From: Candidatus Latescibacterota bacterium
GTDB taxonomy: Bacteria > Krumholzibacteriota > Krumholzibacteriia > WVZY01 > JAKEHA01
Reading direction: 5' to 3'
Length of the DNA stretch: 64,000 nt
Assembly: GCA_963707635.1 (NCBI GenBank)
Contig: OY970173.1
Coordinates: forward strand, 672,001-736,000
The translations under genes were made by a program, and so were the position numbers. Under the pieces are notes generated by a model. That model made no database searches and was not told the DNA's origin. It saw nothing but the letters and a program-made list of their open reading frames with translations. Every line of letters starts with the position of its first letter. Positions within the stretch are counted from its first letter, which is position 1. This document shows, piece after piece, positions 45,030 to 47,064 of this stretch.

Positions 45030-45866
45030 ATGAACGACAAACGCATCGATCTGCACATGCACTCCCACCACTCGGACGGCGTCCACGCGCCCTCCGTGCT
45101 GGTCGACCTCGCGAAGTGGAAGGGGATCTCGGCCATCTCGCTCAGCGATCACGATTCGCTCGAGGGGTATCCGGAGCTCGCGTCGGCCGCGGAAGCGGCC
45201 GGGATAGAAGTGATGACCGGGGTCGAGCTCTCGTGCGAACACGGGGGCCGCGACCTGCACGTGCTGGCCTACGGGGTCGACTTCGACAGCGAAAACCTCC
45301 AGGGGCTGCTGCGCGAGTTTCGCGCCGCGCGCGAGGAGCGCGGGATCCGCATCGTCGAAAAGCTCGCCGAGCAGGGCGTGCGCCTCGACATCGCGAAGGT
45401 AATGGCCAAGGCTGGAGGGGGAGCGCTCGGCCGGCCCCACATCGCGGCCGCGCTGCTCGAGGCTGGCTACGTGGGGGACCACGCGCAGGCGTTCGTGAAG
45501 TACATCGGCGAGGGGTGCCCCGCCTACGTCGAAAAATTCAAGCTCAGCCCGGCCCAGGCGGTCGACTGCATCCAGGCGGCCGGCGGACTCGCGTTCGTCG
45601 CCCACCCCGGGTACTATCTCGACGACCTCGATTCCTTCACCGATCTGCTCGAGCTCGGGTTCGACGGCATCGAGGTCTACCACCCGCACCACACCGCCGC
45701 CGTGACGACGCGCCTGCTCACCATCGCGCGCGACGCCGGCCTGCTGCTCTCCGGCGGCTCCGACTTCCACGGATTCGCGGGGCGCGACAACCTGGGCGAA
45801 CCGCCGGTGCCGTACGCGCTGTTCGAACGCATCCAGGAACATCTCGACGAAACGAGGCGACCATGA
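45030..45866 (+). CDS. PHP domain phosphoesterase (TrpH/YciV-like)
   Basis: DLHMHSHHSDG, SDHD, GRPH, AHP, GGSDFHG. Confidence 0.92.
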   Translation: MNDKRIDLHMHSHHSDGVHAPSVLVDLAKWKGISAISLSDHDSLEGYPELASAAEAAGIEVMTGVELSCEHGGRDLHVLAYGVDFDSENLQGLLREFRAAREERGIRIVEKLAEQGVRLDIAKVMAKAGGGALGRPHIAAALLEAGYVGDHAQAFVKYIGEGCPAYVEKFKLSPAQAVDCIQAAGGLAFVAHPGYYLDDLDSFTDLLELGFDGIEVYHPHHTAAVTTRLLTIARDAGLLLSGGSDFHGFAGRDNLGEPPVPYALFERIQEHLDETRRP

Positions 45867-46315
45867 TCGAAGCAGGAGACTTGGCCCCCGACTTCACGCT
45901 GCTCGCTGACGACGGCTCGCGCGTCACGCTGTCCGCGCTGCGGGGCCGGCCCGTCATTCTGTTCTTCTTCCCCAAGGCCGACACCCCCGGCTGAACGGCC
46001 GAAGCATGCGATTTCCGGGACGAAATCGCCGCATTCCAGCGCAAGCGCAGCGTCGTGCTCGGCGTCAGCAAGGACTCCGTCAAGGCGCAGGCGAAGTTCA
46101 AGGAGAAGTACCAGCTCCCCTTCCCGCTCCTGAGCGATCCCGACGCGACGGTGTGCAACGCCTACGGGGTGATCAACGAGAAGAGCATGTACGGGAAGGT
46201 GGTGAAGGGGATCGAGCGCTCGACCTTCATCGTCGACGCCGAGGGGCGCATCGCGAAGGTGTACCGGAAGGTCAAGGTGGCCGGCCACGCCCGGGCCGTG
46301 CTCGACGACCTCTAG
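45863..46315 (+). CDS. bcp: BCP/PrxQ peroxiredoxin, probable selenoprotein (Sec44)
   Basis: FFPKADTPG-[TGA 45992]-TAEACDFRD in frame with downstream GVSKD...LLSDPD...RSTF. Confidence 0.88.
45995..46034 (+). promoter_or_regulatory. Bacterial SECIS-like hairpin
   Basis: GCGATTTC-CGGGAC-GAAATCGC stem-loop; loop begins 21 nt after the UGA. Confidence 0.7.
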
Positions 46316-47064
46316 CGCCGTCCCGCGACGGCCCGCCGGCGGGGCCTCCCGCCGCGAGAGCGCCGTGGCGGCGAACCCGCCGCGCTCACGACACGATAGT
46401 GCAAGAACACTTCGCTGCCGACGCGCTTGAGCGACACCAGCGCGAGGCGCGGGTGATCTTTCCACAGGAAGCCTTCGCCGTCCAGGAACGACGGAGCCTG
46501 CTTGCCGCCGATCAGCTGCGGTGTCAGCGTGACGTAAATCTCCGCCACCATCCCCGCCTTCGCGAACGCGAAGTGCACCTCGCCACCGCCCTCCAGCAGG
46601 CAGCGCTTGAGCCCGCGCGCGCGCAGCTCGGCCAGCACCCGCACGGGGGACAGCGATCGCCCCGGCAGCACGATCACCTCCGCGACGCGCTGGAAGCGCT
46701 TCACGCGCGCGGGCGGGGCCGAACGCGTGGTAAAGACAAGCTTGCGCGTGGCATCGCTGGCGAAGAAGCGTGACGTGACGGGCAGATCGAGGAGGCGGCT
46801 CAATACGACGTTGACCGGGTGGGGTGAGCGGCCGCGCGCCGAACGCGCCTCGCGCAGGTCCTCGTAGCGCAGCAGGATCGGATACCCGTCGTGACGGACG
46901 GTCCCCGCACCCACGATCACCGCGTCCGCACGCGAGCGCAGTTCGTCCATCAGACGACGGTCGTGCTCGCTGCCGAGCGGAAAGCGCTCGCGTTTGCGCG
47001 TCGTGATGCGGCCGTCGACGCTGACGGCCATGTTGACGATCACTCCGCGAGGAATCGATTTCAT
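46312..47064 (-). CDS. RibD C-terminal/pyrimidine reductase family protein
   Basis: AVSVDGRI, DAVIVGAGTV, LLEGGGE. Confidence 0.88.
   Translation of the reverse strand: MKSIPRGVIVNMAVSVDGRITTRKRERFPLGSEHDRRLMDELRSRADAVIVGAGTVRHDGYPILLRYEDLREARSARGRSPHPVNVVLSRLLDLPVTSRFFASDATRKLVFTTRSAPPARVKRFQRVAEVIVLPGRSLSPVRVLAELRARGLKRCLLEGGGEVHFAFAKAGMVAEIYVTLTPQLIGGKQAPSFLDGEGFLWKDHPRLALVSLKRVGSEVFLHYRVVSAAGSPPRRSRGGRPRRRAVAGRR

Follow-up and report, generated by a model that had tools for sequence, protein, structure and literature searches.

A BCP/PrxQ peroxiredoxin gene with an in-frame UGA that is very likely decoded as selenocysteine in a Krumholzibacteriota genome

The bcp locus and its reading frame

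Here, we examined a 64,000-nt stretch of DNA (the window) from contig OY970173.1 of Candidatus Latescibacterota bacterium, in which a BCP/PrxQ peroxiredoxin gene (bcp) is located between a PHP-domain phosphoesterase gene and a convergent gene for a RibD C-terminal-like reductase (Table 1). The bcp frame begins with ATG at 45863, contains an in-frame TGA at 45992-45994 (codon 44) and ends with TAG at 46313-46315. A first-pass annotation had placed this TGA, which lies between PKADTPG and TAEAC, on the peroxidatic Cys of a PxxxTxxC motif, and had claimed that the rest of BCP continues in frame and that the start of bcp overlaps the stop of the PHP gene. The sequence agrees: the frame stays open from the TGA to the TAG, and the overlap is an ATGA at 45863-45866. 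The stop of the RibD-like gene overlaps that of bcp, and the two TAG codons form the palindrome CTAG (46312-46315), so that the genes have no space between them for a terminator. An Rfam search of 45800-46500 with E-values up to 5 gave just two chance matches, below the gathering scores.

Table 1. Features of the bcp locus and further TGA-containing genes of the source genome (window positions unless genome, contig or locus handles are given)
Feature	Position	Strand	Details
PHP-domain phosphoesterase gene, upstream of bcp	45030..45866	+	NF041577 181 bits, cut-off of 400 not reached
BCP/PrxQ peroxiredoxin gene (bcp)	45863..46315	+	150 aa with TGA read as Sec
Active-site motif P37-x-x-x-T41-x-x-U44 (PKADTPGU)	45971..45994	+	Sequence; solved-BCP alignment
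TGA at peroxidatic Cys position, inferred Sec44 codon	45992..45994	+	TGA in 22/38 matched relatives
Extended candidate SECIS fold with lower stem	46001..46036	+	GAAGC pairs with 46031-46036; MFE/centroid
Cys49, predicted resolving Cys in helix alpha2 (UxxxxC)	46007..46009	+	Cys in 20/23 TGA orthologs
Candidate SECIS upper hairpin	46008..46029	+	8-bp stem; loop CGGGAC 46016-46021
Cys98	46154..46156	+	Invariant, 23/23 in TGA clade; also in solved BCPs
Arg119, conserved catalytic Arg of peroxiredoxins (ERSTF)	46217..46219	+	23/23 (codon +75); aligns with solved-BCP Arg
RibD C-terminal-like reductase gene, convergent	46312..47064	-	TIGR00227 142 bits, below cut-off
MerB-like alkylmercury lyase gene (PF03243)	G000:C1:1323399-1324091 (L061:400-1092)	+	TGA C1:1323852, WWDDIIYT-U-ATM
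Candidate DUF1573/OS_HP2 selenoprotein gene (PG-U-GC)	G000:C1:1152578-1153612 (L060:779-1813)	+	TGA C1:1152806
Short SelW/Rdx-family gene, CIP-U (CxxU)	L062:617-841, TGA G000:C1:431407	-	Strong hairpin

Protein family and active site

With the TGA read as Sec, the 150-aa product matched the BCP model NF006960 with 152.6 bits (cut-off 140) and PF00578 with an E-value of 1e-40. The best PDB matches were the BCP proteins 5enu, 5iph and 3gkk (phmmer E-values of 5e-41 to 1e-38), which aligned over the whole length, and in the alignment to solved BCPs the TGA falls on the peroxidatic Cys. PrxQ proteins have been defined, in the account given in PMC4749874, by a Pxxx(T/S)xxC/U motif plus a distal conserved Arg; both are present here, in addition to a score above the curated BCP cut-off. 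The product resembles the Cys-containing BCP/PrxQ peroxiredoxins (NF006960/PRK09437) in its whole-length match, its Pro/Thr/Arg site and its Cys98, but differs from them in that a Sec codon replaces the peroxidatic Cys, and the top three PDB matches lack the Cys at +5. Among the nine AhpC-TSA matches in the source genome, bcp was the sole one with an internal TGA.

PrxU, a selenoprotein of the AhpC type, originates from Eubacterium acidaminophilum. The product of bcp shares with it the Prx fold and a TGA-encoded residue at the peroxidatic position, but belongs to another subfamily: an AhpC-type or PrxU identity was rejected because both cut-offs were missed (NF040737, 42.6 bits against 270; TIGR03137, 39.8 against 272), and the PrxU model spans 233 positions as compared with 150 aa here.

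From its spacing alone, Cys49 is predicted to be the resolving Cys in alpha2, the location reported for about 60% of PrxQ proteins in PMC4749874. On the other hand, Cys98 is kept in all 23 TGA orthologs and Cys49 is lost in three of them, which suggests another reading, in which the oxidized Se of the Sec-PrxQ clade would be resolved by, or relayed to, the distal Cys98 instead of Cys49. If true, Cys98 would be a resolving position beyond the alpha2 and alpha3 ones described for PrxQ. We consider this reading improbable, and a catalytic role for Cys98 appears unlikely because this residue also occurs in Cys-type BCP structures and a Cys near its position is found in just 10 of 120 listed TGA loci from GTDB (see below).

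Selenocysteine machinery of the genome

The source genome (G000) is a single contig and 96.4% complete. It contains selA (E-value of 4e-115 for the SelA match), a selB that scores over the cut-off and has EF-Tu, beta-barrel and winged-helix (SelB-wing_2 and wing_3) domains, a selD with its own single in-frame TGA (context CAG, then the TGA), and a tRNA-Sec with a UCA anticodon (71.2 bits). The earlier supposition that this lineage uses Sec, for which absence of the machinery had been named as the refuting observation, is therefore supported: selA, selB, selD and tRNA-Sec(UCA) are all present.

SelB-type insertion of Cys at UGA has been reported in a few bacteria, and a Cys inserted at codon 44 would yield a working BCP. 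It is thus conceivable that the UGA is read as Cys or Trp, by suppression or by SelB-dependent Cys insertion, and not as Sec. We regard this as highly improbable. No UCA tRNA other than tRNA-Sec was called in the genome, and this one is canonical, while the tRNA-Cys and tRNA-Trp have GCA and CCA anticodons, respectively. SelA and a Sec-type SelD are encoded as well. In addition, TGA is the stop codon of 217 of 522 long training ORFs; since it ends many ordinary genes, there is no genome-wide reassignment.

All 22 relatives that have the TGA (described below) contained at least one machinery gene (selB in 21, selA in 19 and tRNA-Sec in 17 of 22). Such co-occurrence in close relatives is non-discriminating because the Sec machinery is nearly universal in the class, in which selB was found in 59 of 61 genomes.

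Conservation of the TGA codon in relatives

We searched 60 related genomes for bcp, 38 of which gave a match at an E-value of up to 1e-30. One internal TGA per gene was observed in 14 of 15 same-genus and all eight sister-family matches, and in none of the four matches from other genera of the family or the 11 genomes of other families. In all 22 genes the TGA sits on the peroxidatic codon, with the flanking frame open on both sides. The TGA-bearing orthologous proteins are 52-82% identical and their loci are syntenic: in 30 loci, some of which end at contig edges, the PHP gene was found next to bcp in 20 and the RibD-like gene in 21, and neither neighbor was present at any of the six Cys outgroup loci.

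These data bear on the possibility that the TGA is a true stop, created by a nonsense mutation (in which case bcp is a pseudogene) or by an assembly error, so that translation would yield a 43-aa stub and possibly a GTG-started fragment of 86 aa. TGA does serve, as noted, as a frequent true stop in this genome, and a GTG-started ORF does occur downstream at 46055-46315. Moreover, no contig assembled from four DNA runs spans the stretch or covers the codon at high identity, the codon-covering pieces listed being short and divergent. Against a true stop, the TGA lies precisely on the catalytic residue, the identical codon is TGA in 22 relatives that span two families and whose frames are open before and after it, and at least 120 GTDB loci carry it, with 119 of the 120 listed open for at least 90 codons. 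The chance that translation of bcp truly ends at this codon therefore seems very small.

The alternation of TGA and TGC among aligned orthologs, proposed at the outset as a check, was seen precisely at codon 44. When the catalytic site was masked, a midpoint-rooted tree grouped the 23 TGA rows with one TGC row (G006) on a single branch (support 98/95), within which G006 adjoins a TGA row (95/90). Because of this nesting beside a TGA row, the TGC of G006 (L036:1630) is likely a Sec-to-Cys reversion inside the TGA clade. The G006 ortholog is syntenic and retains the stem of the hairpin discussed below, with the loop now CGCGAC. Its genome has kept selB and tRNA-Sec; no selA match was obtained from the 85%-complete assembly.

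The candidate SECIS element

The first-pass annotation had also described a perfect 8-bp stem with a G-rich loop shortly after the TGA. We recovered this hairpin, in which GCGATTTC (46008-46015) forms Watson-Crick pairs with GAAATCGC (46022-46029) and the UGA-to-loop distance is 21 nt; pair probabilities were 0.98-1.0 in a 100-nt context. The bSECIS model, as outlined in PMC13188914, describes a loop of 3-9 nt, a stem of 4-16 bp, a spacing of 16-37 nt, a G in the first two loop bases and an energy of at most -7.5 kcal/mol. The values here lie within every one of these constraints (loop 6, stem 8, spacing 21, G second, -9.2 kcal/mol).

However, the bSECIS model by itself is permissive: among 581 long ORFs ending in TGA, 397 had some model hairpin downstream and 52 had one of equal stability. 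The hairpin is also unremarkable within a single sequence (fold z-score 0.63). In 5000 trials of synonymous resampling, with Thr codon frequencies that were an estimate, a stem of at least 8 bp arose in 16%, a perfect Watson-Crick stem with a G[G/U] loop in 1.1%, and the MFE was equalled or beaten in 84%. Given the z-score, the resampling and the hairpins of ordinary TGA-ending ORFs, folding energy was rejected as evidence for a SECIS. Since the hairpin is not statistically unusual in one sequence, the case for a SECIS rests on conservation, in relatives that are not independent of one another.

Across 22 aligned TGA rows, the 13 pairs of the fold were formed in 96.5% of cells and two pairs had two-sided changes; none of 500 shuffles matched the observed pairing and covariation. 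One compensatory change, from U-A to C-G, couples an Ile-to-Val substitution with GAT-to-GAC in five rows, corresponding to about two events on the tree. The +21 hairpin was present in all 23 TGA rows and disrupted in each of the six Cys outgroups, and was the sole 5-bp hairpin common to at least 60% of the TGA rows between 120 nt upstream and 318 nt downstream. Its loop reads CG[T/G]GA[C/T] in 23 of 23 TGA orthologs. The Arg codon of the loop is CGT in 21 of these, CGG in two and never CGC, the codon used for 59.5% of Arg in the source genome. Synonymous excess identity was 0.24 over codons +3 to +14 as compared with 0.08 elsewhere (p = 0.004, with columns and genomes that are non-independent).

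It might be argued that Sec is inserted but that the +21 hairpin is a by-product of the conserved peptide C-D-F-R-D-E-I, and that the working SECIS lies at another place, such as some 72-85 nt downstream. The peptide does favor pairing, as seen in the 16% of resamplings with a stem of eight or more, and the Cys-coding G006 retains the stem. A weak hairpin with an AGCAAG loop also folds at about +72 in some rows. Yet the loop retains rare codons, the Ile-to-Val change is matched by GAT-to-GAC, and the loop of G006 has been altered. For the TGA clade, a second SECIS displaced to about +72 was rejected, as the hairpin there is disrupted in most rows and falls short of the 60% sharing threshold. 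We judge it very unlikely that the signal lies anywhere other than in the +21 hairpin.

Other TGA-containing genes in the same genome

A motif-only scan of the source genome retained 164 of 65,585 TGA sites, most of which were noise; among the matches listed, bcp and selD were at the top of the sites with coding-like sequence well past the TGA. A de novo scan, in which 219 candidate sites were inspected by eye, gave three further TGA genes, which match families already known to include selenoproteins, namely SelW/Rdx, OS_HP2/DUF1573 and MerB-like (Table 1). Five candidate selenoproteins were found in this genome: SelD, and otherwise small proteins related to redox reactions or metals. Model hairpins follow the TGA of the SelD, SelW-like and MerB-like genes at 19-22 nt. 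No TGA was present inside the two weak molybdopterin and seven thioredoxin matches, and a Sec-containing formate dehydrogenase was not found with the molybdopterin query.

The hairpin of the SelW/Rdx-family gene has the loop (A)GTT(T) at 21-22 nt. The DUF1573 gene lies in tandem with a stop-free paralog, and across the order such tandem paralogs alternate between TGA-containing and stop-free forms; the scan found no model SECIS hairpin after its TGA. In the MerB-like gene, the 7-bp hairpin has a GGTC loop at 19 nt, and one TGA is also present in six further same-genus matches. The 'CU' motif listed for SaoL differs from the Sec context of this gene, which scored just 39 of 140 bits against SaoL; the gene may therefore encode a distinct MerB-like selenoprotein. 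In addition, an XRE-family HTH frame (G000:C1:1780871, minus strand) has an in-frame TGA between VLETGGG and RRARNEADL, followed by about 190 coding-like codons and lacking a model SECIS; the frame may have acquired a nonsense mutation or may represent two neighboring genes.

TGA-containing PrxQ genes in other phyla

The TGA-PrxQ motif pattern was found at no fewer than 120 loci of many phyla in GTDB, and the matches listed included Acidobacteriota, Acidimicrobiia, Chloroflexota, Planctomycetota, delta- and alphaproteobacteria and others. All but one of the 120 listed loci were open for 90 codons, and a Cys at +5 was present in 28. For the first 50 of the 120, selA was found in 47, selB in 45 and at least one of them in 49, in comparison with selA in one of 14 named control genomes at the same threshold. 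Neither gene was found in one carrier of a TGA-containing PrxQ gene (G072, L076), which is probably an incomplete assembly. In another genome (G077), the SelA match (C2:680847-681950) itself has one in-frame TGA.

By a rough script rule, the hairpins of the 120 listed loci showed two registers that mostly exclude each other: CG[T/G]GA at +21 in 31 loci and a GTT type at about +17 in 37, with both in five and neither in 47. It seems that a SECIS has arisen from one PrxQ peptide stretch along two routes.

Discussion

Because the genome has a full Sec machinery and its relatives have conserved the codon together with a hairpin that resembles the signal, the in-frame UGA of this intact BCP/PrxQ gene is very likely decoded as Sec at the catalytic position by means of the predicted SECIS. 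Established Sec and peroxiredoxin biochemistry suggests how the protein would be made and would act. SelB-GTP-Sec-tRNA(UCA) would bind the G-U/G-G loop of the coding-region hairpin and insert Sec44, whose selenolate, in a pocket of Pro37, Thr41 and Arg119, would reduce H2O2 or organic hydroperoxides. The resulting selenenic acid would then form a selenenylsulfide with Cys49 of the same helix, from which thioredoxin or a similar thiol reductant would regenerate the selenolate.

Catalogues have included selenocysteine-containing peroxiredoxins (TxxU, COG1225) from 2005 onward; 43 Sargasso Sea genes are described in PMC1088965. A Prx selenoprotein family of 12 genes with five Cys-to-Sec events was given in PMC1794560, and PMC13188914 tabulates the Prx family under PF00578/COG1225 with the motif (Pxxx)TxxU. 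The protein reported here is like these in its PF00578 domain, its PxxxTxxU motif with predicted Sec at the peroxidatic position, and its candidate coding-region SECIS within 16-37 nt with a G at one of the loop's first two bases. Nothing categorical sets it apart; its UxxxxC arrangement is shared by 28 of the 120 listed GTDB loci. Our literature search found no paper devoted to Sec-containing BCP/PrxQ, and the supplements of PMC13326102 and PMC12013277 as well as BSepDB may list the family or lineage.

By each feature that could be tested here, the gene is very likely an ordinary member of a selenoprotein family with a canonical SECIS, and it leaves knowledge of Sec decoding and of peroxiredoxins unchanged. 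For annotation, it calls for a correction, as translation table 11 gives a 43-aa stub plus fragments in place of what is very likely the organism's working BCP. For the family, the clade may serve as a natural experiment, with 23 predicted Sec copies, one conserved candidate SECIS and one likely Sec-to-Cys revertant.
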